Origin: Azolla caroliniana
Taxonomy: Eukaryota > Plantae > Polypodiophyta
Reading direction: 5' to 3'
Assembly (NCBI GenBank): GCA_043228905.1
Contig: JBHGNT010000022.1
Span: 9,424,001-9,488,000 of the forward strand
Length of the DNA: 64,000 nt
Shown: positions 7,573 through 61,625 of the stretch, in pieces
Position numbering within the stretch: the stretch's first letter is position 1
How the letters are laid out: each line of letters begins with the position of its first letter
Program-made: the position numbers and the translations under genes
The notes under the pieces: generated by a model
Seen by the model: only the letters and a program-made list of their open reading frames with translations
What the model was told of the DNA's origin: nothing
Databases searched by the model: none

Positions 7573-7959
7573 ACGTGACGAGGATCCTACAAAGATTCAA
7601 CATGCCGGAAGCAAAGCTAGTCGGCTCTGTGTTCCTAACTAGCTGCAAGCTGAATGTAAAGCAATGCCTGAGAGGGGAGAAAGAAAAGAGTGAGATGAGG
7701 AAAGTACCATATGCCTTAGCCGTCGGTAGTTTAATGTACGCTATGTTCTGCACGAGACCAGACATAGCATTTTCTATGGGAATGGTAAGCCGATATATGA
7801 GTAATCCAGGGCGAGAGCGCTAGGCAGCGGTGAAATGGATACTCGGGTACTTAAAAGGCACTTCGAGGGTATGCCTAAGGTATAGTGTCAGAAAACCCAT
7901 GCTCGAAGGGTTTACCGATTCAGACATGTCGGGAGATGCAGACTCGAGCCGATCCACGT
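7573..7959 (+). pseudogene. Copia element 'E' RT fragment (host of C and F)
   Basis: VTRILQRFNM...KVPYALAVGSLMYAMFCTRPDIA...FTDSDMSGDADSSRST; continues in frame at 31184. Confidence 0.9.
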
Positions 7960-9394
7960 TGTCGTAGTGTATTTCGTACACTACGTGAAAAACTTATAAA
8001 GTACCGATTTAATAAATATGAATAAATAGTAGAAAATATTTAAATATATATAGCATGCATAGGGCAAGATTCGAACCTTGCACCGCCATGTTAATAATGT
8101 AATGTCTTACCATTACACTAGCATTTCATTAGTGTTCAAAGGTAGATGTTCCACATAGAAAGCTTAGTTCACCTAGGATATACTTTAGTTAAAAGAAAAA
8201 GCTACGCATGCACATCTAGCGTGCATGAACGCTATAGTTGATAAAAAACGCACAAGTTAGAAAAAGCATGGAGTCTATCTATAGGAAAAGCATGGAGTCT
8301 ATAGTTAGAGAAAAAAAAAACATGGATTCCTAAGACTCCCTCATCACTACATAAGGATGGGGAGCACAATGTAATAGGTGTGTGAAATACTTCGAAATTG
8401 GATATATTTCCGAAAACACCAACCAATTAATATAATAGTGGGATTCACGAAAATAATATAATCTATACTTGTGCGATTCACAAGTTTCTTATATCTTTCT
8501 TTCAATCTAAATACATTATATTCTTATCTAAATATTGATTAATCGAATACAATTCACTCGTGGGATTGACGAAATTTCTATCTCTCTTTCTAATAATCTA
8601 TTCATTACTAACCTTATCTCATATTCTTCTTTCTCCTAGTCCAAAACCTCAGTGGTTCCCACCCAACTCACGCAACGATCTGGCGCCGAAAGGCACGACA
8701 CAAGTGGTGAACCCGACGTGAAAACGGGTGGCAAGGAGATGGAGAATCAACAAGCTAACAATATGATGGCGATGTTCGAGCGGATGCTACAAGAACAATG
8801 CGCGATGTCGGAGATTTCGGCAGCAGTAGAGCGGCTCGTGCAACACAATGGGCAATTCAACGGTAAGGATGTGTCGCGATATTTGCAGGACTACAAGGCA
8901 GAGATGCTCCTGTTACCGGCCGGCAAAGGAGTCTAGAGTGGCAAACGGGGAGTTATTTAAGTAGTAGGAATGTGGTTGTAATTAAGTTATGAGTGTGGAC
9001 GGACGGACCGGAATCGGTATGCCGTTCCGGATCCGGACCGATCCCGAACAGGTGCGGATGGCACCGTTTTGTAATACAGACCGGAAACCTATTTAAAGGC
9101 CCGGATACAATGTAATGAATAGCGGTTAATTAATAAAGCTTAGTGTTGTTATCTCTCTGTGTTAATTGCCGTTCTTCCTTAATTGTTATATCTCACGCGT
9201 GTGATTATGAAAGACGATCATGCTAAGTAACTTAATTAAGTCGGATTAATCGTTGAGTCTAATCCTATTGCCGTAACACCCTTTGGTGAAGTGTCTTCCG
9301 TAGACACCCTGTGTTAGGCCATTGTCCGGCCCTAAGAGTTAACACAGTTTTTGGCGACCACGATTCCTGTTTTTGCAACGAACGACGGCACGGA

Positions 9395-12300
9395 TGTACG
9401 TCTAGATCAAAGCACGACCTGGTTACAGATCGAACTCGACGCCTTGCCGAAAGGCAAAGGAGACGTGAGGCTTTCCAGCAAGCGGCGTAGGAAATTAGAG
9501 CGGATCGCTCGTTTTCCAACGTAATCCGGAGAGTAGCGGAGGACTCCCTCTGGTTACAGCAAACATCGCACCCGGACGACGGCAGCAGCCTAAGCAGCCT
9601 CTGGGAAACCGAATCCCTTCTCCACGCGTTGACAAACGGAGAAGGCGAAGCAGAAGCCTTTTCAGCATATGAATCGGACTCCGAAGGGGAATACAGCGTG
9701 CACACGAACTACCGTAGTAGCAACGAAACCCCGGGCGGACCGGAGGGCGAAGGATCGGATACCTTACCGTCACCGGAACCGGAAGTGCTAACACTGGAAT
9801 CCCCGGAACCAGCAGAGGAAGAGCGACCTCCGACACCGGAAGTCGAAGAGGAGAGGCCGCCGTCACCAAAAGAAGAGGAAAAACCACCGACGTCGGAAAT
9901 AAATCGGGAAAGCCCACCGACGCCGGAGAAAATTCCGGAACGAGCACCAACATTGCCAGCCCGCGCACCGATACCGGACGACGACATGTCGTTCCAGTAC
10001 TCCAAGTATAGAGATGATCCGGACGCGGAAGCTCATGTGCACGCCTTTGAACAGACATGGGAAGCCAACCATGTGTCCCAGCGATTGACCCTGGATGAAG
10101 AAGAACGCTCTAAGATAGCGGAATTTGGTGTCACATTGGAGGGACCAGCGGCAAGATGGCGCCGGACGCAGGACCCGTTTAGCATCAACACCTTTGCAGA
10201 TTTAAAAGCTAAATTCTTGCATTTTTTCCAAAAGGAGGTGGACCAGTCCGTAATGGTAGGCTTATTTTATACCATCCGACAGGAGGCAAGGGAGAGCATT
10301 CCCCAATTTGTCATCCGGTTTTAAGAGATGCATAGTCAGCTTGCCCGCGCACCCCCGGAGGAGGAATTACGGACTATATTCCTAAACGCGCTCTGGGAAC
10401 CCCTACGCACGGTTTGCATGGTAATTGACTTCCGCAAAAGTACCATCGACCAGGTCATTGACCAGGTGAGAGAGATGGAAAAGACAAGCTCTTGGCTCAC
10501 ACTGGGAGCACTCCAACGGGTGTTACCGTCCGATGAAGACCTCCGGTTTCGGCAAGCAATACAGTGCACAACCTGCTTGAATTCCGGACACTCGGCTCTA
10601 GAATGCACTATGAGGACGCAATGTGTAATCTATCAATCCAAGGGCCATACGACGGATAGGTGCGAGTATAATCTATTGAACCGGCAAGCACTGCCCTTCT
10701 GACAAATTGAGCCACGCAGCAGCCAGGATGAAGAAGAGGAACGCTGGTGGCGAATGGACCGCGACCGACCGGCACAGGATGTCTGGTACGGCGACCGACG
10801 GGAGAATGATGTCCGGTATGGCGATCGACGGGAGAATGAGGTCTGGTACGGCGATCGGTAGGATAACTATGACCGGCATGATCGGTACCAGGAGTACAAT
10901 AGACGATACGAACATTACGACCGGGAGCACTCCCCCGGGTATCGTCAGCAACCGGAGGAATACGGTAGATATAACGGGCAACCCCATCAAGAGTACCGCA
11001 ATAAGAAGAGCTATAACAAAAAACGGCATTTCAAAAAAGGCGGCTACCCACGGGATCCGGAACAAGGAGCTCCAAGCAGCCAACCGGTCCAAAACCCCGC
11101 GTGTACCGCAGGACCTGCCCCGGATACAACAGACAATGCCGAATCCAGCAATACCCGGAAAGCCTACTACTACTACTACCGATAGGAAGGCCATTATAGT
11201 AATCAATGCCTGGTGAAGAGCTAAGAAAAACGACCGGCCGTAAATATGGTAGTCCCTGAGGTGGCAGATCTGTAGCATGTGACCACAAGGTTGAAGGGCA
11301 TGGCCAAGGAATGGGAGACGTAGGAGACCATCCGGAAACAAGCAACGGAATTGGTGAAGAAAGCAAACGAGTAGAATGTCACAGACTTACAACGGCAAAA
11401 GGAGAACACCGTAGGGCTTGCCGGTGGTAGTCACTCCGAGAACGAGACATGGCAGGCGTTGCAAGAATGCCAAATTACGTTGCCACTAGGAAGACTCCTA
11501 CAACTCGTGCCAAGATTCATGGAAGGACTGAAGACGGCCATGACGGCAGGAGAACCATCACCGGCACCGGTACTCTTCTCGAATCCGGAGGAGGGACCAA
11601 CGGTGGTGGACACCAGCAGTCCGGTAATCACTGCCATTGTAAAAGGGAAAGAACTCCCCGGCACAATTATAGACGGAGGCTCTGGGGTGAATGTAATAAG
11701 CCTTCGGACGTGTGATGCCCTAGGAATCCACGAGTGGGAGCCATGTCCGTTCTGGTTGCGGATGGCCGATACAAGCTCAGTGCGGCCGACAGGATTAATA
11801 CGGGAATTAGAAGTCACCGTGGGCGGTCATACATTTCACATCTCGGCAGTAGTGCTACAATTACAAGCACAAGGCACATATCCGCTATTACTGGGGCGGC
11901 CATGGTTGAAAACGGCACATATCAAACAGAATTGCAGGAAAAATATAATTACCTTCCGGCGAGGAAAAGCTAAGGTACGGGTACCAACACAGCCAAGGAC
12001 GAGCATTGGCAAGGAATGTATACCGTTGTATGTGGAATGCGTCAATATGCTAGAAGGGTTAGCTGACGAAGAAGAAGCTTAGTACTTGCAGGAAAACCCG
12101 AAGATCATACCCCTCTTCGAAACTGACATTGCCGAAGCAGTAGCACCATACTTACCGCAACCGGAAGAGGCTAAAGACGAACCGGATAAAGATGCAATCC
12201 GGGAGTTACGGCAAGCGCAGGAAGCGTTGGAATGGGAAATGGCCGTTTCACAGCACGTAAAAGCGTCGCAACTGGAAGAGGTGAACCTAGGGACCACGGA

Positions 12301-15214
12301 CGAAGCAAAACCGGTGCACATCGCCAAGGAGATGAAGTCCGAAGACAAAACGGCAATGATCACACTTCTCACGGAATTTCGCGATGTGTTCGCCTGGTCA
12401 TACGAAGACATGGGAGGACTCGACCCTCGGTTATACTAGCATCAAGTTCACTTGAGCAAGGACACAAAACCAGTGGCACAAAGACGGTATCGGATGAATC
12501 CCAATTATGCCGCCAAAGTCAAGGAGGAAATCGACAAACTGCTAAGAGTTGGCTTTATCCGTCCGGTAAAGAAAGCGACATGGCTGAGCCCGATCGTAGT
12601 CGTACCCAAGAAGAACGGAAAAATTTGAGTTTGTGTGGACTACCGGAAACTCAATGCAGCTACAGTAATGGATGCGTTTCCACTTCCGTTCACAGATGGA
12701 GTGTTGGATGTCATCGCCGGCCATGAGGTCTATAGCTTCCTAGACGGATTCAGCGGGTATAATCAGATCTGGATGCACCCCGACAACCAAGAGAAAACGA
12801 CTTTTGTCACCGAATGCGGGGTGTTTGTGGCCGTGGTGATGATGTTCGGACTCAAAACGGCACCGGCAACATTTCAACAAATCATCATGGAAATCTTTGG
12901 GGAATATATTCCGGCTTTTATGCAGGTTTTCCTTGACGATTTCGCCGTCTATAGCCGGAAGGAGGACCATTTTCAGCACCTCCGTCTTTGTCTAGAAAAG
13001 TGTAGAGCGTACCGGGTAAGCTTGAATCCGGCAAAGTGTGTATTTGGCGTGTCCAGTGGAACTCTATTAGGACATATTGTGAGCCAGGAAGGTATTGCAG
13101 TCGACCCGGACAAAGTGAAAGCCATATTAGAAGCACCGGCACCGGCAACGGCAAAGGCATTAAGCCGGTTCTTAGGCCAGATCCGGTGGCACAGCCGGAT
13201 GCTCCGATACTTGGCCGACCTGGCTACACCGTTGCATGCCGCCGTACATCGGACACCATTCCAGTGGACCGACACCGCGGATAGGGCATATAGGGCCCTC
13301 AAGGTACTATTTTCACAAGCACCGGTAGTGCAGCCTCCAGATTGGAGTAAAGAATTTCACGTGTTCGTGGACGCCTCCGACATCGCAATCGGAAGCGTAC
13401 TGATGCAGCTTACAGAACCAAAGTGGTACCGGCCAGTGTACTATGCCAGCCGAAAGCTATCCCAAGCAGAACGGAACTACTCTACCATGGAACGGGAAGC
13501 TCTAGGGATGATCTATAGTGTGACAAAGTTTCGGCATTATTTATTGGGAAGGAAGTTTTCCTTCCATGTAGATCATTCAACACTCCTTTACCTGGTGTCC
13601 AAAACGTCACTCACCAGCAAATTGGCCCGGTGGACCTTACTATTACAAGAATTCGAGTTTGAAATATTCCACCGACCCGGTATACAGCATGTCGTGGCGG
13701 ATTCCTTAAGCCGATTAGAGTCCGGAGAGACGGGTGACAGAGTAGCGGATGAGTTTCCAGATGCGGAGCTGTTTTGAGTCACTATGGAAATGGCAGTAGA
13801 TGAGACGGTGGCACAGGAAGACAAGTGGCTCAAAAACATGCACGAGTTTCTAAGCACAAGACTGCCTCCGGAAGAGATGAACTGGGACGAACGGAAACGC
13901 CTGGCGGTGCAAAGCCGACATTTCTGCTTACTGCAAGACACACTTTACCACAAGGGCGCAGACGGCATATGGAGACGGGCTATGCGCAACAATGAAAAGG
14001 ACCTGATACTGAGGGAAGCTCACTGCGGAGTTGCCGGAGGTCACTATGCCGGGGATGCGACGACCAGGAAAATATGGCAAAGTGGCCTATGGTGGCCAAC
14101 GACATTAAGAGATGCGGTACGGTACGCAAAAGAATGTGACCTATGCCAGCGAATGGGCCAGCCAACGGAGCAAGCTCGGATGCCACACCAGCCGGTACTA
14201 CCACTCGAGTCATTCCAGAAGTGGGGGTTGGACTTTGTTGGACCGTTCAAACCACCGGCAATGAGAACGGGTAATCGGTACGTCATCGTCGCGACGGATT
14301 ACTGCACGAAATGGGTGGAGGCCAAAGCATTAAGAGACAACACCGTTGCGTCAACGGCGAAATTTCTATACGAGTACATCTGGTGCCGTTACGGATGCCC
14401 AATCGAATTAATAAGCAACCAAGGGGGGCACTTTCTCGGGCAAGTAGTGGAAAGCCTGACGACATTCTATGCCGTTGTCCACAAACGAAGCACACCTTAC
14501 TATCCGCAAGCGAACGGTTTAGCGAAATCAACGAACAAGACGCTCCAGAATATCCTCCGGAAGATCGTCAACGAAAACCGAACGGATTGGGATACCAAGC
14601 TACATAGCGCGCTTTGGGCATACCGGACGGCATACAAAACGAGCATCCGAACAACACCGTTCCGGTTAGCGTTCGGACTAGAGGCGGTAATGCTGGTGGA
14701 ATTCCAAGTACCCAGCTTACGGATCCAGCTACGGGAACGGCTGAATGAGAAGGAGTCGGAGGCAATACGGTTAACAGCGTTGTGTGAACTCGAGGAACAA
14801 CGACTGGCAAGCATCCTGCACTTAGAATTGGAACAATGGCGACGGAAAGCATTTGTCGACCGGCACAGGAAAGGAAACGAAAAAATGTTCGCAATCGGCA
14901 AACTGGTGTTAGTATTTCAGACCCGGATGGGCAAGATGTCGGGTAAACTACGGTTTAGATGGACCGGACCATATTGGCTACCACATGAGTATAATGGGTC
15001 CTACTAGTTAGGGACACTTGCCGGCGAAGTGCTAGGAAAATGGGTCAACGGATTCCGATTGAAGCCATATAGAGGACCGATGCCTAAGAACCCATTTGAG
15101 CAAAGGACCGACACCAGTGAGGGAAACGACAACCACCAAGACGGCGGAGATGGCGAGCCGGTAATTGGGGAGAATGAGGCCGGTAAGGGTCCGAGAGGAC
15201 CAACGGACAAGTAA
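9395..15214 (+). pseudogene. gag-PR-RT-RH-INT of element B, with scattered stops
   Basis: ORFs 9629.., 10328.., 11459.. (IIDGGSG), 12635.. (RT FLDD; RH) and 13784.. (integrase HHCC, WGLDFVGP, ATDYCTKWVEA, YPQANG). Confidence 0.92.
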
Positions 15215-18111
15215 CGTCACACACTCGGAAAAAAAAAAAAACGAAGTAATCATGCAAAAGCGAGGAATGAATGGATGAAAGAGCAAGGAGCGAAAAGGTA
15301 CGTAGTGGGCATTTAAAGCGCCACGACAGGACATAATGCTATTTTAGTACACGACATGCACACACTCGAAAAAGGCGCCAGAATGCACAGAGAAAAACCA
15401 TTGCACGTGGAGACCCTTTACTTTCGCGAACCCAGGAGCACAGAAGCACCAAGGCGCTGCAAGATCATCAGACGAGAACCTACGCACAGAGAACCCCCGC
15501 CTTCTGAACTCTCTCTCTCTCATCTCACTCTCATCACCATCCAACCTCGGCACCGCAATCCGACCTCGACACAGACATGGACCCGTAAACGCTGTCGGAA
15601 GCCGCCAAGACATGGCTAAAGCAACACGGGCTTGAGGGCTTCTTGATGATGATGGAAGTACCGCCACACAAAGAAGCCGACAAGGTGATCAAAGAAATCG
15701 ACACAGAGGTCATAACGGCAGAGGCGATTCGAGCGTTAACAGGCCTTCCGGAGGGAGGCATACTCACGATTGACAATCCAACCCCGGAGCAACTCATCAG
15801 GTATTTTGGTGAGTACTCCCTAGCCAGCAAGGGCTACCGGACACAGGGCGGCAGAGATATGTTGTTTCGCGAGATTGCTCGTGTGCTCCACGAATATGGC
15901 CATGTGTACCCTAGACCCCCTGTCATGCCGCAGAACCGGGCAGGGATGATCATCGCCACCTATGAAGGGATCAAGGTGGATTGGCCGGTATTGATCGCAG
16001 ACGGGTTGTGTGCGGCGATCGAGATCGTCAGAGGCAAAGACGGCAAAGAAGGCCGAGACGGACGGAGGATATGGCACGCCGTAACGCAGTGGCTCACCTT
16101 GCTTGTGCCACCCGTCCAGCCCGTCCAGCCCAAGAAGCGAGGAAGAGTGGTTGACGGCACCCCAAAGACGGCGTCCAAAAGACAACAGTTGTTGGCCTCT
16201 AAGGCCACTAAGGGAAAGGTGGCGGACGCAGAACAGGCGGGAAAGGAGAGCGGCAACCGGAAGCGTCCAACGGATGCGCAGGAGGAACCACCGGCACGGC
16301 CCGTAAAGGTTACACTCCGCCGACCGGTGAATAGAGAAGCGGACCCCTTGGCGGCAAAACTCAATGCCGGGACTTAGGAAGAGGAAATAGAGGAGGAGCC
16401 TACGGAGCACCTCCAGCGACGGTCGTCAACAAGGACCGTTGAGGCAGCCGGGAAACGTTTGGACCCTCAGACGGAGGGAACACCAGCTCCCCATACTAAG
16501 ACTCCCACGCCAAGGAAGGAACCGGAACCGGTGCGCATGGCACCAGAATCAGAAGCCCCGACACCACCGGCAACACCGGCAAGTCCCATCCCGCCAGAGC
16601 CGGAAAGGTCAATGCAGCTTCCCTCGGCCAACCAAGAAGAAGCGCAAGGGGAACCAGGATAGCAGGGTGGTCCACAGGCAGAAACGGAATTGCAACTCGG
16701 CGCAACCAGGCGGGACCACCCATCTACAAGTGAGCCCATCTGTCAAACCTCCGTGCAAGCACAACAATGCACCGGTAGCCTGTGGCTCTGGTGGATAGGC
16801 GAACAGATAGCCGGAGCTGAGGTGGAAGAAAGAGCGCAAAGCGAACGGTTGCTCGTCACAACCAATCAATTAGAGACGGCCCAGTCCAGAATCTGGTGCC
16901 TTGAAAAAGACTTGGATAAGGTCACGACAGAGATGGCCAAAATGGCCTTAACGGCAACACAGATTCAATCACCGGTGACTCCGGTAAGTATACAGAATAA
17001 AGAAACGGATCGACCTGTACATACCAATAAGACCCCGGCAACGGAAACCGTTCTGGCGAGAGATGCGGCGCAAGCCCAGGAGCTTGCGGAATTGAGAGAT
17101 GAACTTGCCGCACAGGAAGCGCTAAGGAGCCGTGAACGGGAATTGAAGACAGCGGCCAAAGCCGAATTAAAGAAGACTGCTGAGAACCTCCGCCGGGCAG
17201 AGGAGAGCCTCCGGAAAGGCCATCAAGCGTACGACCGGCTAAGGGAGGAAAAAGACAAAGTACTATAGGAAAAGGACAAGCTGCGGAAGACGGCGGAAAC
17301 GGAAATTGAACGGCTAAAGGAAGAGCTCCACCAGCAGAAGGACCGCGAGGACCGGGCCCGTCAACAGATCAACACACGGCTCAAGCAAAAGACAGATGAT
17401 TTTGAGCACTTGCACCGGGACTACAAATGGCTAGAAACAGAGCATAAGGAACGGATGGCCGAGCTCCAGCAGGAAGTTGATCGGGCCGCGATGGCGATCG
17501 CCGACGAACGTGCAGAAAATACAAGACGCTTGGACGAGGCGGAGAAGGTCCGGATGGAGCTCCAGAGGCAACAACAGGAAGAAAAGGAGAGAGCGTCAAC
17601 GATATTGCAGAAATTACAAAGCACGTATCAAAGGCAATTGACGCATTACAAGGAGCAGGCGGAAGACAACGTCAAAATCATCAAGCAATTGAAGGAGGAA
17701 CGGCAAGCAGCGGAAACCAAATCGCAATTGGGAACGGGCCGGATTCAGTCCATCCTTCGGGCATGGCTGAATCAGAAAAAACACTTGATTGACGAAAGCT
17801 CCGTAAGATGGTGGACAAAGTGGGCACAAAACGCGGCGGAACTCCAATTGCTACGGGCAGACGTGGCAAACCGGCGAAAGGAAGGAGATGATTGTTATAC
17901 GTTGACTTCCGAGGACTTCACCGCCATACGGGATGAGCTGGCCGACGACTTCCAAGTCCTGGTGGATGAACAACCGGCGCAAGTCAGGCAACTCGTAGCA
18001 GAGCTAGACGATGATAGGCTGGACGCTCAAATCCAGTTAGAAAGCTACGAGCGGTCCCGGGTTCGGGAAGAAAAAGCACGGGAAGCGGCAACGGTTAACC
18101 TTAGTGATGAG

Positions 18112-21100
18112 TGTTAAACACAGTGCTCGGCCACAACCGAGGAATAGGATCAACTCACAGAAAACAGGAAATACAAAGTGCACGAGGAAAATAGAGAGAA
18201 GAGTACACAGGATGTTTTACGTGGAAAACCCTAAATGGGAAAAAAACCACGGGAGTCCTCAAACTCCAACTATCACTATAAACAGAGATGTACAATGGTG
18301 AAGCTACAAGGCAACAACCTTGAGCTCACTATCTTCGCCACAGGCGGCGGTAATACACAGAGGCAACGACCTCTTCGTCTCTCTCTCTCTCACTTTCTCT
18401 CTCGGCTGCTCTCACTTCGCTCCCTCTAAGTGAAAACAGAAAAATGAGCAACAACTACTAAACTGTTTGCCCTAAGTCATATTTATACACATATGACTTT
18501 CGGGCTATTTACAAATATAGCCTCAAGGGCCCTTGGCAAACATATTCACAGATATGTCCCCGCATCCGGATCTCTCTCCGGGTACATTCGTCATCCGGCT
18601 CCGTAGCCAGGGTCTTCATCATCCGGCTCCGTAGCCGGGGTCTTCATCATCCGGATCCGTAGCCGGGTACTCTTCATCCGGCTTCATGCCGGGTACTCTT
18701 CATCCTCTGGTTCCGTAACCGCAACCGGGCTTGCCGTCATTCATCTCCGGACATCCCATCCGGAGGGACCGAAATCCCAACAAACTCCCCCTTCACTTCG
18801 GCATGGGATGTCTCTCCAATCCGATCCTCTTCCGGCATGCTTCCAGCTTGTCGGGTGTGAGCACCTTGGTCAGCATATCCGACCCGTTCTCGTCCGTGTG
18901 GATCTTCGTCAGTACGAACTCCTTGTCTTCTATCCTTTCCCGGATCCAGTGGTATCTACGCTGGATGTGTTTCGTCCGGGAATGGTAGGCCGCGTTCTTC
19001 GCAAGGTGGATGGCACTCTGACTATCGCAGTAGAGCCGGTACTCCTCCTGCCGGATACCGAGCTCTCTAATGAAGTCCTTCATCCATATTATTTCCTTGC
19101 CGGCTTCAACAGCCGCCATGTACTCCGCCTCCGTGGTTGACAACGCAACCGTCTTCTGCAACCTCGACTGCCACGAAACGGCTCCCCCTGCATATGTCAT
19201 TACATACCCTGATGTAGACCGGCTGGTATCCGCATCAGCCGACATGTCCGAATCAGTAAATCCATCGAGTTCGGGCTTACCGGAGCCGAATCGGAGGCAC
19301 ATGTTCGAAGTGCCCTTTAAGTATCGGAGTATCCATTTGACCGCGTTCCAGTGCTCCTTGCCGGGATTACTCATATACCGGCTCACTACTCCGACTGCGT
19401 ATCCAATGTCCGGTCGGGTACACACCATCGCGTACATCAAGCTCCCGACGGCAGAGGCATATGGTATCTTCATCATATCCTCCTTTTCAACTTTTGTCTT
19501 GGGACTTTGCTTGCCGGATAACTTGCAGTTTGCCGGGAGGGTCGACCCGACCGGTCTTGCTTCCGACATGTTGAACCGGTGAAGCACCTTTGTCACGTAC
19601 TTCTCCTGTGACAGCCACAACTGCTTCTTCTTCCGGTCCCGGATGATGTGCATCCCTAGTATTTGCCTCGCCGGACCCAGGTCCTTCATTGAGAAAGTTC
19701 GGTGAAGCGCTTTCTTCAGCATCCGTATCTTGACCTGGTCCCGTCCAACGATCAACATGTCATCCACGTACAGGAGGAGTATTAGAAAGTCTCCTTCTTC
19801 GAACTTCTTCACAAACACGCAGTGATCGGACTGCGTTTTGTGGTACCCTTCTTCGGTCATGAAAGAGTCGAACTTCCGGTACCACTGCCGGGGAGCCTGC
19901 TTCAGTCCGTAAAGGCTCTTCTTCAACCGGCATACCAGGTGCTCCTTCCCTTTCTTCTCGAATCCTTCCGGTTGCTGCATGTAGATCTCTTCTTCGAGGT
20001 CACCGTGAAGGAATGCCATCTTCACGTCCATCTGTTCTACCTCGAGGTCCATGCTTGCCGCTATGCTCAGCACCGTCCGGATGGAGGTCATCTTCACTAC
20101 CGGGGCAAATATCTCGTCGAAGTCGACGCCCTTCTTCTGCTGGAACCCCTTCACCACGATCCTGGCTTTGTATCTCGGGGGGTTTCCGGCATCTCCCGGT
20201 TTCAGCTTGAACACCCACTTGTTTCGAAGTGCCCGCTTTCGTTTCGGCAACTCCACAAGTTCATATGTGTGGTTCTCATGCAGGGAATCCATCTCCTCCT
20301 GCATGGCACTTAACCACCTGCGGCTATGTGTGTCAAGCTTTGCTTCTTCAAAACTCTCCGGCTCCCCCTCGTCGGTTAGCAGCACGTGCTCTGGTTCCGG
20401 AAATCTCCGGGGGGCCCTTCTCTCTCTTAGAGGATATCTCCGTTCCGGAGCTTCGGTAACCGGCTCCTCCGTTTCCTCTTCATCCGAATCCATTTCAGGA
20501 TCGGGGCAGGTTCCGGTATCAGTTTCATCTTCCTCGGCCGGTTCTGTTTCTTCACCGTCTTCGGCCGGATCCTCGAGTGCTAATCGGTCCCTTGCCGGTC
20601 GGGACTGCTCCTCGTAGAGTTGATCCTCACCGGTCGACTTGGAGCTCTTCATCTTCTTCTCCGACTCCCAGTCGGCGAGTGTCTTGTCCTCCATGAAGAT
20701 GATATCACGACTTCGGAATATCCTTTTGTCGACCGGGTCCCATACTCGGTAGCCGAACTCGTCATCGCCGTAACCGAGGAATATGCATGGCCGGGTCTTT
20801 GGATCTAGCTTTCCTCTCCGGTCCTTTGCTACATGCACATATGCGAGACACTCGAACACCTTCAGATGCCGGTAGGATACCTCCCTACCGGTCCACACTC
20901 TCTGCGGCGTGTCTCCGTCCAAAGGTACTGAGGGTGATCTGTTTATCACATATGTCGCAGTCGACATTGCCTCAGCCCAAAACCCCTTGGGTAATTTCGC
21001 ATGTGCCAGCATACTCCGGACCCTCTCCATTATGGTCCGGTTCATCCTCTCGGCCAGCCCGTTCAGTTCCGGCGTCTTCGGCACAGTAAACTCGAGTCGG

Positions 21101-23540
21101 ATTCCCTTCGAGTGACAGTACTCCTCGAACTGCCCCCGGTATTCCCCTCCGTTATCCGCTCGTATCGCTTTCAGCTTCTTGCCGGATTCTCTTTCCACTC
21201 TCGGGTGGAGTTCTTTGAAGACGGACAATACTTGGTCCTTTGTCTTCAACGGTGCCGTCCACAGCTTCCGGCTATGGTCATCTATGAATGTTACGAAGTA
21301 CTGGGCTCCGCCATGTGACTTCGTTTCTACCTGACACACATCAGTGTGTACCAACTCCAATGGTACACTACGTCTCATCAGTGGTCTTGAGCGGAAGGAG
21401 GTCCGGTTTTGCTTACCGGCCAGACAGTCGGTACACTTCCCCAGTTGTACGTGCTTTACCGGTATCAGGTTGTCTTCGGCAAGCCTCTTCATCCCCTTCT
21501 CGCTCATGTGGCACAGTCTCTTGTGCCACAGCTCACCGGTAGTGTCAGCTGCCACGTTCAGCTCCTCCGGACATAGCCGGGAATTCATCAGGTACAGTGT
21601 GTTGACCTTCCGGGCCCGAGCCACTATCAGGCTCCCTTTGCTGAACTTCATGACACCGTTCCGGATGCTACCCGTGTAGCCTTCATCGTCTAGCCTGCCG
21701 GCCGAAATCAGGTTCAATCGAACCTCCGGAACGTGTCGAACATCCTTCAGCAGCATCTTGCATCCGGTTGATGTCATCAGCCACACGTCTCCTATGCCGG
21801 CAATCCGGCATGTACCTTCATTTCCCATCCGGACACAGCCGTGCTCACCGGCTGTGTAGGATGAGAAGTATTTCTTCTCCGGGGTCAGGTGGAACGACGC
21901 TCCGGAATCGACCACCCAGGTCATCTCTTCACCGGCAAGGTTCAGCTCCCTCTCTTCGGTAATGAGCATTATCTCTTCTTCACTTGCCGCGAGTGCCGTT
22001 GTTCCTTTCCGGTCCTGCCCTCGCCGATCCGGACCTCTCCGGTCCGCGGCTCCCCGGTATGCACCGTTTCGCTCCGGTGACTTCTTCGAATCGGTACCGT
22101 CGGTTCCGTTGTCTTTCCGGAAATGCCGACAGTTCTTCTGGAAGTGCCCCGGCTTCCCACAGTAGAAGCATGTAGGTCTTCCCCTCGACTGCGACCGTGT
22201 CCCCGACTTCTCCCGTCTTTGCGGACTCCGGTTCCGTTGTCTTCCCCGTTCCGATTTGGTAAGCAGCGCCTTCGAGTCGGAGGCCGGTTCTTTATCTCTC
22301 CGACGCGCTTCTTCATTTAGAATACTTGTCTTTACCGTTAGTAAAGACAAGTTCTCTTCCTTACAGGAGGTGCTAAGTGTAACTACCAAGTTCTCCCAGC
22401 TCTCCGGAAGGGTACACATCAGCATGATGGCTTGCATTGCGTCATCCAACGGGAACTTGATCGCCGCAAGCTGGTTCACGAATCCCATGAACGTGCTGAC
22501 GTGTTCGACCATGCTCTCGCCGTCCCGGTACTTAAGATTCACTATCTTCCTCATCAGGGAGGTCCGGGTCAGAGCATTCTTCCTCTCATACAGTCCGGAC
22601 AGCTTCTGCCACATCTCATAGGCGTTCGTATCGTTCGCCACATGTTGCAGGACACTTACATCGACATATTGCCGGATCGTCGCTACGGCTTTCCGGTTCA
22701 GGAGCTTCCACTCCGACTCTATTACTCCCTTGGGTATCTCGGCATTGTCGATCGGTTCGTACAGGTCTCGGACGATGAGAAGGTCTTCCATCTTTATCTT
22801 CCAGTCGGCGTAGTTCTGTGAGTTCAACACCATCATGCCCGGAGGCCCACTACCGCCGCCTTCCATTTTCTGTGTTACAGTCGCTCTGATACCACTTTGT
22901 TAAACACAGTGCTCGGCCACAACCGAGGAATAGGATCAACTCACAGAAAACAGGAAATACAAAGTGCACGAGGACAATAGAGAGAAGAGTACAGAAGATG
23001 TTTTACGTGGAAAACCCTAAATGGGAAAAAAACCACGGGAGTCCTCAAACTCCAACTATCACTATAAACAGAGATGTACAATGGTAAAGCTACAAGGCAA
23101 CAACCTTGAGCTCACTGTCTTCGCCACAGGCGGCGGTAATACACAGAGGCAACGACCTCTTCGTCTCTCTCTCTCTCACTTTCTCTCTCGGCTGCTCTCA
23201 CTTCGCTCCCTCTAAGTGAAAACAGAAAAATGAGCAACAACTACTAAACTGTTTCCCCTAAGTCATATTTATACACATATGACTTTCGGGCTATTTACAA
23301 ATATAGCCTCAAGGGCCCTTGGCAAACATATTCACAGATATGTCCCCGCATCCGGATCTCTCTCCGGGTACATTCGTCATCCGGCTCCGTAGCCGGGGTC
23401 TTCATCATCCGGATCCGTAGCCGGGTACTCTTCATCTGGCTGCATGCCGGGTACTCTTCATCCTCCGGTTCCGTAACCGCAACCGGGCTTGCCATCATTC
23501 ATCTCCGGACATCCCATCCGGAGGGACCGAAATCCCAACA
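18112..23540 (-). mobile_element. Copia element 'D', full length, Tnt1/Tork-like
   Basis: LTRs 18112-18782 and 22898-23540; TSD ATGAG; PBS TGGTATCAGAGCGA (tRNA-iMet); PPT AAGGGGGAG. Confidence 0.97.
18793..22866 (-). CDS. Copia gag-pol polyprotein (1357 aa, uninterrupted)
   Basis: CCHC knuckle, WVVDSGAS protease, GAG-pre-integrase WHKRLCH, integrase HTDVC/FIDD/NGLAER, RT LLYVDD, RNase H TDSD/EAEY. Confidence 0.95.
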   Translation of the reverse strand: MEGGGSGPPGMMVLNSQNYADWKIKMEDLLIVRDLYEPIDNAEIPKGVIESEWKLLNRKAVATIRQYVDVSVLQHVANDTNAYEMWQKLSGLYERKNALTRTSLMRKIVNLKYRDGESMVEHVSTFMGFVNQLAAIKFPLDDAMQAIMLMCTLPESWENLVVTLSTSCKEENLSLLTVKTSILNEEARRRDKEPASDSKALLTKSERGRQRNRSPQRREKSGTRSQSRGRPTCFYCGKPGHFQKNCRHFRKDNGTDGTDSKKSPERNGAYRGAADRRGPDRRGQDRKGTTALAASEEEIMLITEERELNLAGEEMTWVVDSGASFHLTPEKKYFSSYTAGEHGCVRMGNEGTCRIAGIGDVWLMTSTGCKMLLKDVRHVPEVRLNLISAGRLDDEGYTGSIRNGVMKFSKGSLIVARARKVNTLYLMNSRLCPEELNVAADTTGELWHKRLCHMSEKGMKRLAEDNLIPVKHVQLGKCTDCLAGKQNRTSFRSRPLMRRSVPLELVHTDVCQVETKSHGGAQYFVTFIDDHSRKLWTAPLKTKDQVLSVFKELHPRVERESGKKLKAIRADNGGEYRGQFEEYCHSKGIRLEFTVPKTPELNGLAERMNRTIMERVRSMLAHAKLPKGFWAEAMSTATYVINRSPSVPLDGDTPQRVWTGREVSYRHLKVFECLAYVHVAKDRRGKLDPKTRPCIFLGYGDDEFGYRVWDPVDKRIFRSRDIIFMEDKTLADWESEKKMKSSKSTGEDQLYEEQSRPARDRLALEDPAEDGEETEPAEEDETDTGTCPDPEMDSDEEETEEPVTEAPERRYPLRERRAPRRFPEPEHVLLTDEGEPESFEEAKLDTHSRRWLSAMQEEMDSLHENHTYELVELPKRKRALRNKWVFKLKPGDAGNPPRYKARIVVKGFQQKKGVDFDEIFAPVVKMTSIRTVLSIAASMDLEVEQMDVKMAFLHGDLEEEIYMQQPEGFEKKGKEHLVCRLKKSLYGLKQAPRQWYRKFDSFMTEEGYHKTQSDHCVFVKKFEEGDFLILLLYVDDMLIVGRDQVKIRMLKKALHRTFSMKDLGPARQILGMHIIRDRKKKQLWLSQEKYVTKVLHRFNMSEARPVGSTLPANCKLSGKQSPKTKVEKEDMMKIPYASAVGSLMYAMVCTRPDIGYAVGVVSRYMSNPGKEHWNAVKWILRYLKGTSNMCLRFGSGKPELDGFTDSDMSADADTSRSTSGYVMTYAGGAVSWQSRLQKTVALSTTEAEYMAAVEAGKEIIWMKDFIRELGIRQEEYRLYCDSQSAIHLAKNAAYHSRTKHIQRRYHWIRERIEDKEFVLTKIHTDENGSDMLTKVLTPDKLEACRKRIGLERHPMPK

Positions 23541-24283
23541 ATGAGGACCCGTCGCCGGCCGAGGGCCAGCCCGGAACCAGTGAACCGGAGACCACTACGA
23601 CGGAGGGAGCAACGACAGAGACGCCGGTGTCAGAGCAACAAACGGAGGAGAAGCCGCAGCAGCCACCAACGGACCCGACGCAGCAGACATCAACAGAGCA
23701 GCAACAACAACAACAACCAATTCCAGATGAACCATTGGAGACTCTCGAACAAAGCATTCTGGATATTTTGGACGAAGAATAGCAAGGGTTGATTGTGGAT
23801 TCGACGTACAAGATACTGTCCCACGGGCGTGCCATGTGTTACCGGCGAGCAAAGGAGTCCAGAGTGGGAAACGGGTAGCTATTTAAGTAGTAGGAATGTG
23901 GTTGTAATTAAGCTATGAGTGTGGACGGACGGACGGACCGGAATCGGTATGCCATTCCGGATCCGGACCGATCCCGAACAGGTGCATGCGGACGGCACCG
24001 TTTTGTAATACAGACCGGAAACCTATTTAAAGGCTCAGATACAATGTAATGAATAGCGGTTAATTAATAAAGCTTAGTGTTGTTATCTCTCTGTGTTAAT
24101 TGCCGTTCTACCTTAATTGTTATATCTTACGCGTGTGATTATGAAAGACGATCATGCTAAGTAACTTAATTAAGTCGGATTAATCGTTGAGTCTAATCCT
24201 GTTGCCGTAACACCCTTTGGTGAAGTGTCTTCCGTAGACACCCTATGTTAGGCCATTGTCCGGCCCTAAGAGTTAACAGCTCC

Positions 24284-27200
24284 GGTGCCGGATTTCGGAA
24301 GGACTGCAAGTGACATCCTTCAAACGGGTGGCGACCGATGGGCTTCAAGGGAGTATCCATGGGTTACAACAGCAAAATCCAACGTGGGAAGCATTTGAAG
24401 AACCGTTAAAGAGCACGTTCGCCATCGAGGACTCCTCCAAGGCAACGCGGAGGGGATTCGAAGATTGGGTGGAAACGCCAGGTAAGGGGCTGAAGGTCCT
24501 CGAAGTGTTTTCGTCATTCGAAAGTCGGTTCGGGGGGTTGTCCGCAAGAGATCAAACTATTCTTGCACCGGACAAAGTCATCATGTTTTTGCGAGTTGTG
24601 GACGTCAAGGACCGGAAAGATCTCGGAGTGCTTCTGGAGGACATGACCACCGAAAGTGGCCTCACCAAAACCTGGGAAAGTGTGCGGGATATCGTCGCGC
24701 GATACACGAAGAGGGGGCAGTGGCTTGCTAATGAAGAGAAGAGGGTTTCGGAACCGATTCCAAAACCGAGATCCGGATTGGAGGACCATCAACTGCGGAC
24801 TTGAGAGACTACGACCGAGAAGGGGATTGACGCAACCACGGTGGAGCAGTTGCTGAAAGATATGGAGAATCTGAAAATCGCGATGGTGAAGAAGTCGGGA
24901 GACCGTCCCACAAACTCCAAGTATATGGACCGTCGATGTATATGGTGTGAAAGCACCGAACACGATCGGAGGGATTGCGACGAGCACAAGGAGGCATTAC
25001 AACGGGATCTTATCTACTACGAGGGAAATCGGATTCATTCGATGGACTCTCAGAAGCCACTCCGACCGAACTTCCGAAAAGGCGGCATGAAGAAGGTTCT
25101 AGAGGAGGAAATAGCGGAAAAAGGTAATTATGCGACGACCGCGGGAATAAGTGTGGGTGGGTCATCGGGAGCAAAGGCGTCTTTTTGGCCGGATATGCTA
25201 GAAAACCCCAAGAAAACCGACTCCAATGAGATCCGAAGCACCGCGGAAAGCATCCGTGAAGCTACGGGATGGGAGTGCCTCGTCGATAAGAATAGCGTGT
25301 TTGCTTTATGCCAATTGCATGAAGTGTATGTAGATGGGAAGTGACGGCGCACGGATGAGGCAGCCGGTCCATCGAAGACACCGGAAAGCTGGAACTCCGG
25401 AGGTAAGGTAAAAGAAAAGATGATTCCGGCATTCAAGCTCGCCTCAGACATCGAACAACAAACGGACTTGAAAAAGGTGTTCGAGGAGAGAATCCTCGAT
25501 AGCCGGGTAGATTTTTCGCTTCGAGAATTACTCGGAATAGCGAAGAAGGAGTTCCACGATCCTCTTGTGGATCTCGTAAAGAGAAAAAGGCAAAGTATGG
25601 AGGAGAATGCTCCAAGGGTGAATGCAAATACCGTTCTAATGAATGACACCGAATTGGAGGATGAAATACCGAATTCTCACTACACAAAGCCACACTGGGC
25701 ACGCGCAACTACGGAGACTCCGGTTCGAATCGGTAACATCAAAGAGCCCGTGCTAGCATTGATTGATCACGGATCGGAGATCAACTTGATGTTTGAGTTC
25801 TACCGGAAGGGTAAGTGGCCTATTAACATGAATCATGGGTGGAAGATCCAGGCAGCCACTAAAGCAACGGAAGATCTATTTGCGGCTTGTCCGGATGTGA
25901 CAGTGAAGATCGGGGATGTCGAGATCGACCAAAATTTCTTCGTACAAGATGAGTTCTCACACTCCGTGATCCTCGGGAAACCTTTTATGACGGCATCACG
26001 GATGGAGACGAAGGTGCTCAATAGCGGTGCGCCTTTTGCACGAATTCAGAGCCAAAACGGAGGGAAATCCGTCCAATTCCTAACGGTGCCGGCAAATCAT
26101 GGAAAGAACAAGAGAGAGCTCTTGTCCCAAACAAGAATGGATTTTTAGAGCGGATTGTTGCGGAGTGCGGAAGTGATAGTCCGAGAAGCCCTGATACCCC
26201 ACACAGGAAGAAACCTCTCGGTGCAAAACAAGTACGAATCAGTCCGGATGGGGCATCCACGTACACGGCCGTAACCGGAGGAATGAAGAAAGAATACCGA
26301 AAAGTGGAGGATAAGTTACGGTCGGCATCAATAATAAAAGAAGACGAAGAAATCGTGGGAATAGTCAAAGAAGTGTTCTATGGGAGCACACTACAACGGC
26401 TTGAAGAGCTCGCGGAAGATACAAGCTAGGGAAACCGGGTAATTCTGGTGGAGTCGGTCGAGATGTACGAGATCATTGTGAAAATGGGGTCGGATGCGCT
26501 CCGCAAAGAAGAAGCAATGGTAAGTACGAAATACAAGACCGTGGAGAAGAAAGTGAAACCGGCCGCGGGACCGTTACCCGCAGATAGCGAACAAAAGAGG
26601 AAAGAAGTCTCGGGGGATCCGACACTTCGGAAGTTCATGGATATAGGACATGCCTTCACAGATGAGACCCGGCAGAAACTTCAGATCGGTGGAGGTGGTT
26701 TCCTATTAAAGAATGAAGAAGAACAATTCCGTGGGATGCTAGAGCGACATGGGAGAGCATTTGCATTTACATTGAAAGAAATAGGATGCGCTGACCCGAA
26801 GATAGTGGAGCCGATGGTGATCTTCACGATTGACCATGTGTCGTGGAACCTGAAGCCGATTTCGGTGCCACAGGCGCATATTCCGAAAATCATCGACTTG
26901 CTCAAGGAGAAGGTGGCGATGGGGATTCTAGAGCCATCAAATGCTCCGTACTCAAATCGATGGTTTACGGTTCCGAAGAAGAATGGGTCACTCCGATTTA
27001 TTCAAGACTTGCAACCGGTGATCAAGGTCACGATCCGGAATTCCGGAGTCGGTCCGATAGTGGACGAATTTGCAGAAGCATTTGCCGGTCGTGCAATATA
27101 CTCCATCGGAGACCTATACTCCGGATATGACCAATTCCAACTAGCCGTGGAGAGCCGAGACATCACTACCATGCGGACACCGATAGGATTAGTCCGGATG

Positions 27201-29426
27201 TGTACGCTACCACAAGGCGCGACGAGCTCAGTCGCACATATGATGAATGCGATGAACAAGGTGCTAGGGGATTGCATACTGGAGATAACGATGCCGTTCC
27301 TAGATGACATTCCGATGAAAGGGTGTGTGGTGGAAGAAAAAGATGAAGCTATGGATGAACGCGGATGCCGAAGGTTCGTAGTCAACCATATCCGTGATTG
27401 TGAGAAAGTGTTACGGAAGCTAGAAGATGTGCATCTAACACTTTCCGAAGACAAATCGGCATTCGAACAAGAAGAAATATTGGTAGTCGGACATCTATGT
27501 GGGCCCTACGGCCAAAGACCGTCACCAACCAAGATCGATGCGATTTAAGCTATGAAAGAAGTATGCGAGTCACAATCCGAAGTCCGAAGGTTTCTTGGAG
27601 CATGTGCATTCTATCACATATGGATTCCGCACTACGCACATATTGCGGACCCGCTCTATCACTTGTTGCGGAAGGGGAAGAAGTTCGAATGGAAACCGGA
27701 ACACACCGAAGCCATGAGGAAGCTCAAGAAAACACTGCGGAGGGCTGAAGCTCTAAAGAAGCCGAACTATAACCGACCAGTTATAGTAACGGTTGATACA
27801 AGTCCAACCAGAATCGGATGGGTCATCAATCAACTCGACTCGGAAGGTTCGCGATATCCGATCCGATTCGGAGCAAAGGTTCTCAACGAAAGGCAACGCG
27901 GATATGCACAAGTTAAAAGAGAATTATGGGGAGTCGTGTCGGCAATCAAATCGGATCAAGATTATTTGATCGGAGCCGAAGTAGTGATCGAAACGGATTG
28001 TCTTCTAATACTCAGGATGATGCGGTGTTGCACGGTACCGGATGTGGCTATGCTAAGGTGGATTGCATATGTTAAGTCACTTAATTCGGAGGTAAGACAC
28101 ATCTCCAGAAAAGACAACGTTGTAGCGGATATGCTATCAAGGGCGCGGTTTGGAGATGACATAACCGAATCCGATAATGAAGAAGTTTCCGAAGACTACT
28201 TTGCTTCAGAGCACATATGCCGGGTGGACATAATCCAAGAATTCTGGGAAGAAGAATACGAGGGAGAAAGCTTGTTGATCGGGAAAGTGCTACAAGAAAT
28301 CGAGGAATCATCGGACAATAAAGAGAAGAGAGTCGAGATCCGAAGTAAGAAACGGCAAGTCCGAAAGTTCTTCTTGAAAAATGGATTTTTATGGAAGGAG
28401 CCGAAAAGACCGGGTGGCATACCACTTCGAGTAGTTGGGACAAAAGAGCAACGAAACCAGGTAATGTCCGAATTTCACGAATCTGATTGGGCTGGACATC
28501 GGGGAACATGGGGAACATTTGGGAAGATCAAGCAAAGATATTGGTGGAAGAATATGTACAAAGATGTCGCGGAGTTCACGGAAAGTTGCGAGAAGTGTCA
28601 AATCTACTCCGGAGTTCGACACCGAGATGAGTTACATCTGACATTCTCATCGACAATCAACTTCAAATTGATAGTCGACATTGTAGCCATGCCAACTAGG
28701 ATCGGACAAAATAAGTACTTGATGTTAGCTCGGGAAGATCTCACAAATCAAGTAGAAGGTCGGGCGCTATGAAGAAAAACGTGTTCTACGGTATGTCAAT
28801 TTCTTCTGGAAGAAGTGTTTTGCAGGTACGGGTGCGTAGGACAAGTGATTGCGGATCGGGGAGAACTTGACTCTGATAAAGCTAGGGGATTCTTCGCCAA
28901 AGATGGAATTCGGTTAACACTAACAACGGCATACAATTCGGAAGCCAACGGGAAGGTCGAGCGAGGACATAGTCCGATCATCAAAGCACTTGCCAAAGCA
29001 TGCGACGGAAGGGTGATGGATTGGCCACAGATGCTCCCGTATGCACTATGGGCGGATCGGACGACGCATAGCTCCGTAACCGGTTATATGCCGGCAGAAC
29101 TTATGACTGGACAAGCATCAGTAATGCCGACGGAAACCGCAATCGCGACATGGACAATGCTACCGCGGAAGATTGAAGAAGGAGATTGGGTGATTGTCTA
29201 CGACAGTAGTTTGGATCATCAACATACAACGATGTGGAAGTTCGTGAAAAGGTGGTTCGGGCCATATGAGGTTCAGAAAGTTTTCGATAACGGAACTTAC
29301 CGACTATGCGAGTTGGATGGAACGACGCTACGAGTGCCTATAGCCGGGAAACGGGTGAAGATTTTCAAGAAGCGGACTGAAGAAGAACCCTATGTGATCC
29401 TAGACAAGGCCGACAAGAAGGAGTAA
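24284..29426 (+). pseudogene. gag-PR-RT-RH-INT of element C (gag N-terminus at 8740-8910)
   Basis: CIWCESTEHDRRDC knuckle, LIDHGSEIN protease, YKTVEKKVKP motif, RT (GDLYSGYDQ, LPQG, PFLDD), RH (VTVDTS), integrase (ADRGE, ANGKVERGH, WFGPY); stops and an apparent deletion near 29168. Confidence 0.88.
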
Positions 29427-29584
29427 TCGGACGAAGATCGCAGTGATGCGGAGAGCAAGGAAAGTGGATTACAACTCATAGTCGACTTAAGGGGAGAATT
29501 GGAAGAACCTTCGGATGAAGGTGAATAGCTAGCATCGGGGACTTCGGCACATACCGGAGGATGTGCGGGTTCGGAGGGGGCGAG

Positions 29585-31179
29585 TGTCGTAGTGTAATTC
29601 GCACACTACGTGAAAAATTACATTTTTGGTTTCTCCAGATAGGATATGGAGTACCCAGTGAGAATCGGAAGGAAGAACTAGTGAGGACCAAAACCGGTAA
29701 GGAGACCGGCAAGAGCCGGATGAAGAAGGCCGGTGAGAGTCGGTGAGAAACGGACGAAGAGGATTGGTAAGGAGGATCTGGTAAGAACCGGATAAAGAAA
29801 ACCGGCGAGAACTAGATGAAGCAGAACCGGCAAGAGCCGGATGAAGAAGGCTGGTGAGAGTCTCTTACGGGATGAAGAGACACAATTGTAAATAAAAGAA
29901 ACATTAAAATTTTTGTTACGTGCATAGGGCAGGATTTGAACCTTGCACCTCCATGTTAATAATGTTAAGCCCTATCATTATACTAGCGTATTATGAATTT
30001 TAAAGTTATACTAAACATTATTCATACATAGACACTCGAGTTAAAAGAAGAGGTGAGAGAAAAAGCTAATCATGCACATGCAATGTGCATGAAAACTAAA
30101 GATAGGAAAAGCATGATGCTTGCATGTGATAAACTTAGACTCTTCCAACACTATATAAGGAAGAGAGAAATATGTATAGAGGTTGTTGATTATTTTACAA
30201 GGGTTGATTAATATAATATAATCGTGGGATCCACGAGTTTGCTAACTATTTTTCTCTCTTAATTTGAGAACTCACTAATACACTATACTCGTGGGATTCA
30301 CGAGTTTTTCATATCTTTCTTTCTTACAATATATTTCATATTCTTAATTGCCTTAGAATTTTCTTTCCTCCTAGTCCAAAACCCCAGCGGTTCCCACCCG
30401 ACTCACGCAACAATCTAGAGTCGTAAGGCACGACACAATTGTAAATAAAATCGGCGAGAACTGGATGAAGCAGAACCGGCAAGAGCCGGATGAAGAAGGC
30501 TGGTGAGAGTCTCTTACGGGATGAAGAGACACAATTGTAAATAAAAGAAACATTAAAATTTCTATTACGTGCATAGGGCAGGATTCAAACCCTACACCTC
30601 CAAACAAACAAACTACAGCCTTACCATTATACTAACTTATTCTGAGTGTTTCAAATATAGATTTAATACGTACAAAACATTTATTTTCGTCTACTTTCAT
30701 TAAAAGGTAAGTCATGCATTTTTAGAATGCGTGAAAACTTTATTTATATGCACACTAATAAAATTATGCGTGCACATCTAGCGGGCATGAATGTTAAATT
30801 TAGGAAATCATAGTCGGAAAAGTAAGGCATGCAGATTTAGAGAGCATGAACACTTTAGAAAAGCAAGAAGTTATGCTTAGCCTCTCCCGTCGTTATATAG
30901 GGAGGAGAAAAAGATGTATAAGGGTTGGTTATTTTTTTGGATTAAGTATTGATCAATATAAAAATTATTCGTGGGATTCACGATTTATGCATCTACTTCT
31001 TTCTTATCAACCTAAGTACCAATTAATATAGTATACTCGTGTGATTCGCGAGTTTCTTATCTTTCTCTTTACTATCTACTTATAATTAGTCTCTATCTCA
31101 CGATCTCCTTTCTCCTAGTCCAAAACCCCAGCGGTTCTCACCCGACTCACGCAACGATCCGGCGCCGAGAGGCAAGACA
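29585..31179 (+). repeat. Compound 3' LTR of C: full LTR 29585-30435 plus a second 5'-truncated LTR 30436-31179
   Basis: The LTR-end sequence CCTAGTCCAAAACCCCAGCGGTT...GGCA(C/A)GACA occurs at both 30435 and 31179; block ~29810-29945 is repeated at ~30460-30595. Confidence 0.8.
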
Positions 31180-31183
31180 ACGT

Positions 31184-45084: not shown

Positions 45085-45239
45085 GTCCTATATTAAATGA
45101 ACATGGGAGTGGAGGATCTACAATGTATCCTATTTAAGGCTTTAAGGTCAACACACTAACTAGATTCTATATAGGTAACCACTAAGTTACCTATGTTGAC
45201 TAACTAACTATATCTAGTTGTGTTTCTCATGCATCATGG

Positions 45240-47653: not shown

Positions 47654-47701
<48 letters not shown>

Positions 47702-53085: not shown

Positions 53086-53138
<53 letters not shown>

Positions 53139-61184: not shown

Positions 61185-61625
<441 letters not shown>

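Follow-up and report, generated by a model that had tools for sequence, protein, structure and literature searches.

The 64-kb stretch of DNA analysed here (hereafter the window) consists of plant LTR retrotransposons nested in one another, and several of its LTRs carry a pair of short motifs that resemble the A and B boxes of a tRNA gene. This raises the question of what a tRNA-like module is doing in the U3 of elements that have a Pol II promoter of their own, and whether it is kept there by selection. Our analysis indicates that the module is well supported as a sequence feature and that its function is a prediction. Specifically, the U3 of autonomous LTR elements from more than one lineage holds an A/B-box unit that lacks a cloverleaf and is apparently kept under selection.

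The host elements were oriented by PPT, PBS and TSD checks, which place C, G and M on the plus strand and H and J on the minus strand. Element J was taken as Copia following the original prediction. The other elements are as follows.

7960..31179, plus strand: element C, a Phygy-type gypsy element with other elements nested inside it
7960..8700, plus strand: 5' LTR of element C, with a PBS at 8705-8722 and the 4-bp TSD ACGT (7956-7959 / 31180-31183)
29585-30435, plus strand: 3' LTR of element C, carrying the C2 module
30442-31179, plus strand: tandem partial LTR copy of element C, carrying the C3 module
~47572-47993, minus-strand element: 3' LTR of chromovirus H
~53003-53412, minus-strand element: truncated 5' LTR of chromovirus H
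55464-58555, plus strand: element G, non-coding, 3.1 kb, TSD CTTTC, with an internal tandem array at ~56700-57970
55464-55948, plus strand: 5' LTR of element G
58047-58555, plus strand: 3' LTR of element G
63463-63913, plus strand: LTR M, related to element G

Element C encodes RT, RH and IN domains found with Pfam, gave no match to a chromodomain, and has named homologs of its RT and integrase in Riccia, Adiantum and Ceratopteris. Its PBS at 8705, which may be of the tRNA-Trp type, is common to three of the outside loci described below (L009, L013 and L018). The Phygy traits listed by Neumann et al. 2019, in the passages of that paper on lineage traits (PMC6317226), include 4-bp NCGN TSDs and mainly tRNA-Trp PBSs, and these passages make no mention of an LTR Pol III module. 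Element C resembles this lineage in its 4-bp NCGN TSD (ACGT), in the lack of a chromodomain match and in its non-seed-plant homologs, and an assignment based on TSD and homologs fits Phygy. Judging from these homologs, the host too is likely a non-seed plant. Note that element C has one TSD pair, yet its LTRs are only ~73-89% alike in their aligned parts (7960-8700 versus 29585-30435 versus 30442-31179), and each LTR, as well as the tandem extra LTR, resembles a different outside subfamily (L003; L005 at 94%). This divergence and the separate subfamily matches suggest that element C is a recombinant element. Chromovirus H is a coding element as C is (between them they encode RT, IN and chromodomain), its chromodomain matching PF00385 at E 5e-9. 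The PBSs of H, G and M are all complementary to their own LTRs, that of H to a sequence ~30 nt past the TATA-like box. H is assigned to the Tcn1-type chromoviruses from its chromodomain and self-priming PBS, a kind of PBS that Tcn1 is described as having. Given that the PBS of the non-coding element G is of the same self-priming type, G is likely mobilised by a Tcn1-type partner.

The modules and module-like sequences of the window are given below, with profile scores in bits.

8067..8120, minus strand: C1 module, an A box, 32-nt spacer and B box, antisense in the U3 of the C 5' LTR; 44.2 bits, first T4 run 30 nt downstream
29932..29985, minus strand: C2 module, in the C 3' LTR; 40.7 bits
30581..30634, minus strand: C3 module, with a spacer of the same length but diverged; 42.9 bits, T4 run 22 nt downstream
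47924..47978, plus strand: H1 module, 33-nt spacer, antisense to H; 32.7 bits, no T4 run within 300 nt
53360..53412, plus strand: H2 module, in the truncated H 5' LTR; 30.4 bits
63492..63546, minus strand: M module, 33-nt spacer, antisense in LTR M; 26.8 bits
42..95, plus strand: S module, a sense copy whose Phygy LTR ends at 424, new in this analysis
58075..58134, minus strand: G1 partial module, AGGT and B box with a 37-nt spacer; 19.0 bits
55492..55535, minus strand: G2 partial module, 21-nt spacer; 25.2 bits
55012..55069, plus strand: end of the Copia J LTR, a T-arm-like hairpin over the terminus with a poor A box, a doubtful member

The original prediction described antisense boxes at tRNA-like spacing in four LTR families, both Copia and Gypsy. 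The motif sequences that it quoted are present where it placed them, and in all five cases (C, H, G, M and J) the motif is indeed antisense to its element near the LTR 5' end, the prediction's plus and minus labels denoting the strand of the module. With a profile trained solely on 14 modules from outside loci, to avoid circularity, C1-C3, H1-H2 and M obtain 26.8-44.2 bits, versus 21.9 bits for the best of 100 block-shuffled windows. A scan with generic A and B boxes allowing one mismatch gave four matches in the window (C1, C3, H1 and M) versus one in six shuffles. None of the Tat-like and Tork-like LTRs of the window reaches 10 bits with the profile. Thus families C, H and M stand above shuffled sequence at the tRNA-like spacing of 32-33 nt, whereas G retains only a B-side block at aberrant spacings (37 and 21 nt). 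The Copia J hairpin is real but overlaps the LTR terminus, and both the profile and a B-block scan missed a full module there. Contig depth over J and G2 showed no clear module island apart from the LTR terminus.

The orientation proved less uniform than the predicted "always antisense", as sense modules occur at 42-95 of the window and in the outside loci L009/L010, L020/L021/L041 and L028. The existence of sense and mixed arrangements also removes the outward-facing arrangement as a general property. Taken alone, the S module with its 15.6 bits does not rise above the shuffles. However, a clear sense module in L017 and L018 is its homolog, the alignment fixes its sense orientation, and its host LTR matches that of L018.

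The outside set comprises 82 loci fetched by integrase alignment. The LTR start was located in 66 of them, and the 49 with at least 400 nt of LTR were counted, the other 33 being left out. At up to two mismatches, the sequence downstream of the integrase contains 15 antisense and 8 sense matches in 105 kb, as against a single match in 250 kb upstream. Within the 49 LTR loci there are 17 matches (up to two mismatches) where 0.3 would be expected, and all 17 have a 32- or 33-nt spacer although 30-35 nt was permitted. By the profile, for which some of these loci were also training sequences, the module is present in 16 of the 49 loci; when the Phygy LTRs of these metagenome loci are grouped into 35 clusters, 12 carry it. 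The positive clusters all come from the main group of assemblies (12/30, versus 0/5 in other assemblies), and three loci outside the 49 (L029, L060 and L069) carry it too. Because 23 of the 35 clusters and all Tat-like and Tork-like LTRs of the window are without it, the module is dispensable. Two side observations on the outside loci are that most of the Phygy loci shown (L001-L082), across hosts, have a strongly conserved stretch of ~40 nt just before the PPT, as has the window at ~29545-29584, and that the plant Phygy integrase sequences of L001 and L002 lie in two bacterial genome assemblies, a placement that is likely contamination.

In regards to arrangement, a sense copy stands alone in L009 and L020, the LTRs of L017 and L018 have two antisense copies stacked with one sense copy, and both orientations and stacked copies are found among L017, L018, L028, L029 and L062. 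The U3s of L018 (offsets 140-376) and L062 (offsets 102-184) also show tandem duplications of the block formed by AGGT and the B box. The antisense majority (15 versus 8 matches) would suit an RNA-level role in which the antisense U3 copy pairs with the primer tRNA and bridges genome ends, as proposed for HIV-1, whose U3-R reportedly contains a tRNA-Lys3-like sequence. This explanation has to contend with the sense copies, with a match of positions 61-73 to the primer end implied by the C PBS of only 2-7 out of 13 in 30 modules, and with the self-complementary PBSs of H, G and M, which likely use no tRNA primer. We therefore consider docking of the primer tRNA to be the least probable of the explanations weighed here.

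What is conserved within the module was measured in 20 modules, one per family or position, and in a thinned set of 12 without close kin. The module is 54-55 nt long with its boxes 32-33 nt apart. Across the 20, mean pairwise identity amounts to 0.63 for the A box, 0.59 for positions 20-23, 0.34 for 24-43, 0.90 for 44-47 and 0.74 for the B box, the values for the boxes being partly circular since the boxes were the selection criterion. The flanks, at 0.33-0.34, are at the level of the 24-43 spacer, so the boxes exceed their surroundings in the box-versus-flank check that had been suggested. The same pattern holds within family C, where the free spacer of C3 is identical to those of C1 and C2 at 10/20 and 11/20 positions and the boxes at 9-10 of 11, which bears out the spacer divergence noted earlier. 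AGGT at tRNA positions 44-47, which was not in the search pattern, is present in 16 of the 20 modules and in 8 of the 12 after thinning (GG in 11 of 12). AGGT at this position matches the variable loop of many tRNAs, and a 32-nt spacer equals the G19-to-G52 distance of a tRNA whose variable loop has 5 nt. Argued from the AGGT, tRNA ancestry of the module is likely.

Several features beyond the boxes are those of a Pol III gene. In 13 of 20 modules (6.6 expected, p about 0.001), three sense modules among them, the strand of the module itself has a T4 run no more than 40 nt downstream, a signal that thinning leaves weak (7 of 12 versus 4.0 expected, p 0.05). No such near T4 run is found at the H, M and S modules. 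Internal T4 runs are absent from all 20 modules, versus 3.6 expected from spacer shuffles (p 0.012), with A4 runs occurring as expected. Ahead of the A box, at a distance of 40-10 nt, the A+T content climbs to 76-85%. Because its boxes, spacing, AT-rich upstream region and T4 run match the plant tRNA-gene layout described in passages of PMC13578239, the module can be said to have that layout. In terms of sequence it shows the A box, B box, tRNA spacing and AT-rich upstream region of a type-2 Pol III unit, the oligo-T terminator being present in 13 of 20 only. A functional tRNA gene was rejected, in agreement with the original prediction: ARAGORN called none in the window and none in any of 19 module-bearing loci, Rfam gave no tRNA match, and 15 aligned rows showed no covariation in the canonical D, anticodon and T stems.

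These structural results bear on the possibility that the module serves to produce an RNA, a short tRNA-like Pol III transcript whose T-arm hairpin is retained and which would work in trans as a small-RNA source, a decoy or a replication aid. In its favour, native T-arm segments fold better than chimeras (-8.4 versus -6.2 kcal/mol, p 5e-5; thinned p 0.008), in a flexible register, internal T4 runs are avoided, and acceptor-stem pairing is marginally above that of shuffles (36/105 versus 27.7, p 0.027). However, the opposite strand gives just as strong a hairpin signal, one flank control came out at p 0.03, folding of the D and AC arms is not significant, the canonical stems lack covariation and the spacer sequence is unconserved. 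A trans-acting RNA product is thus unlikely in our judgment, though not negligible. Note that the conserved T-arm hairpin also counts against a pure DNA barrier, which needs none.

We also considered how the module came to be spread as it is. On the integrase tree its distribution is patchy, the label 'none' needing nine changes, at least seven of them forced by well-supported branches. This count is approximate, as the labels came from the mismatch scan and L013 and L041, marked 'none', are profile-positive. L030 has in its U3 a block from an L029-like family that comprises that family's PPT, the start of its LTR and its module (100/131 identical), which shows that U3 capture can spread the module and speaks against the purely convergent origin that had been inferred. 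G2 shares 24 of 27 bases at positions 44-70 with the Phygy sense module of L028, the median being 17, a hint of exchange between lineages. No relatives turned up when viral contigs were scanned with the integrases of H and C, so that outside loci are lacking for H, G, M and J, and the occurrence of the module across lineages rests on the copies in the window. Alignment of six sister LTR pairs revealed no discrete bordered insertion, most U3s differing wholesale.

Patchiness and U3-block capture are both compatible with a neutral relic, that is, the head of a tRNA-derived SINE that hitchhiked in ancestral LTRs and spread by U3 swapping, and Helenus elements are proposed to originate from a SINE insertion in passages of PMC10886601. 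Contrary to such drift, near-perfect boxes and a fixed length persist although the spacer has fallen to flank-level identity. Neither a TSD, a SINE body nor a poly-A or other A/T tail is visible in the module flanks or among the loose ends listed. Family-level conservation in contig depth is also informative here. Contig depth on the C 5' LTR in four runs peaks at the LTR start, at 8048-8128, in the TATA region and at the 3' end. For example, the module bins of run X1 reach 338k, 394k and 228k versus 49-54k and 38-71k beside them, and the other three runs agree. The C module is therefore a depth island in 4/4 runs, like the LTR end and the TATA region, where depth is a sum over contigs rather than a copy number and modules of other families may add to it. 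Only 0-2% of the contigs on the C LTR run into unlike sequence, so that, among the loose ends listed, nothing points to a free SINE that has the module as its head. A neutral relic is accordingly improbable.

The position of the module relative to the Pol II promoter separates two types. In the LTRs with a recognised TATA-like box, the antisense modules and three of the sense ones are upstream of that box. In contrast, the sense module of S, L017 and L018 lies ~130 nt downstream of the TATA-like box, without AGGT or a near T4 run, and may be a separate, more Helenus-like type. As described in passages of Kojima 2024 (PMC10886601), Helenus elements (TRIMp3) are short (311-1263 bp) non-coding TRIMs with a tRNA-like LTR module that is taken to drive the element RNA. 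That module is conserved near boxes A and B, is mostly a non-functional tRNA, is patchily distributed with a proposed repeated origin from SINE2 heads, and lies in sense in the single plant family, from Selaginella. The same passages remark on a likeness to tRNA parts in 'not a few LTRs' of Repbase, with only TRIMs being analysed (PMC10886601).

The modules described here share with Helenus a tRNA-derived A/B-box sequence in the LTR. They differ in that their carriers include multi-kb coding Phygy and chromovirus elements instead of short non-coding ones of about 0.3-1.3 kb (C and H are coding, and G is non-coding but 3.1 kb long). They also differ in being mostly antisense, often self-terminating, sometimes stacked and upstream of a Pol II TATA-like box, rather than sense and transcribing the element, S/L017/L018 being the exception. 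An internal promoter of the Helenus or Cassandra kind that transcribes the element RNA itself would account for the S type, with its sense module past the TATA-like box and no near T4 run, and Helenus-1_SMo carries its module in sense. It fits nothing else, as most modules are antisense, or sense with a T4 run 14-35 nt downstream, and the hosts are multi-kb coding elements, which need Pol II according to passages of Kojima (PMC10886601). For the module as a whole we regard this explanation as highly improbable. Cassandra and Ajax TRIMs are similar in keeping a Pol III promoter of small-RNA-gene origin in the LTR, but theirs has 5S-type (A/IE/C) boxes, belongs to non-autonomous elements and makes the element RNA, as described in passages of PMC10886601.

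Among autonomous retroelements, tRNA-like or Pol III elements inside the LTR are the point of likeness with HIV-1, Ty3, mdg1 and foamy virus. Ty3 reportedly has a bipartite PBS, mdg1 is said to have Pol III transcription from its LTR, and foamy-virus U3s are said to have Pol III cassettes. These systems either base-pair to the primer tRNA or are in sense orientation, whereas the present modules have no primer-end match and occur in both orientations and in several families. Barriers formed by tDNAs and TFIIIC are reportedly the subject of Simms 2008, Noma 2006 and Van Bortle 2012. Along with the boundaries at mouse B2 SINEs, such barriers were shown in yeast and mouse for host loci and SINEs, and our literature searches found none for plant LTRs. 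In passages of PMC8136502, the tRNA-type boxes of B2 are proposed to delimit chromatin states. In the open full-text literature, subscription papers and Repbase annotations aside, we found no such module in autonomous plant LTRs, and the passages of a Marchantia preprint (10.1101/827881) and of a sugar-beet paper (PMC13570524) contain nothing on it.

Our best reading is that the module is selected rather than neutral and would act on LTR chromatin. Specifically, we propose with a probability of roughly 55% that it is a 54-55 nt tRNA-like unit, likely bound by TFIIIC, transcribed by Pol III and self-terminating, that keeps the chromatin upstream of the LTR Pol II promoter open. TFIIIC would bind the A and B boxes, Pol III would transcribe the module as a short unit ending at the T4 run, and the bound machinery would keep the chromatin just upstream of the Pol II promoter open. 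A DNA-level Pol III unit is favoured because conservation falls on the parts read by TFIIIC, TFIIIB and Pol III, and because the module occurs in both orientations, including stacked copies. We infer TFIIIC and Pol III occupancy, transcription and a benefit to the element from this pattern. The chromatin-barrier step is suggested by analogy with yeast tDNA barriers and mouse B2 SINE boundaries, and the insulator or shield role that had been predicted is a possible one.

A broader version of this proposal, which we offer tentatively and hold to be possible without favouring it, is an anti-silencing cassette. Here autonomous LTR elements of one plant group would have domesticated a portable tRNA-gene mimic that recruits TFIIIC and Pol III beside the Pol II promoter. 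Unrelated gypsy lineages would have traded it by U3 capture, putting thousands of Pol III sites in the genome and possibly inflating the tRNA-gene counts of repeat-rich ferns. A fern tRNA-gene count above 7500 is given in passages of PMC13578239; the passages of a fern genome paper (PMC6786969), and its supplement in a term search, contain no discussion of tRNA genes. Some extreme plant tRNA-gene counts would merit a check for LTR-borne mimics, as a lead only, given that ARAGORN does not call the modules. Previous descriptions of Pol III modules in LTRs concern short non-coding TRIMs, whose RNA the module drives, and a conserved self-terminating unit in either orientation in coding elements points to another use. 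If the proposal is true, a retrotransposon would have a cis-acting, protein-free way to resist silencing, and sister families that differ in the module would serve as a natural experiment on a barrier function of TFIIIC sites in plant chromatin.

Finally, the window contains other features of note. Before the 3' LTRs of the Tat-like elements D (23800-23836, plus strand) and A (1877-1915, minus strand), a stretch resembling a tRNA 3' end stops 2 nt short of the LTR, and the purine tract that precedes a 3' LTR is absent from both elements. Inverted repeats of ~800 bp that are ~90% alike flank a Copia fragment at 44297-46830, possibly a MULE-like or foldback element. An intact intronless reading frame at 61188-61595 on the minus strand, which from its sequence we take to be histone H3, lies among the repeats.
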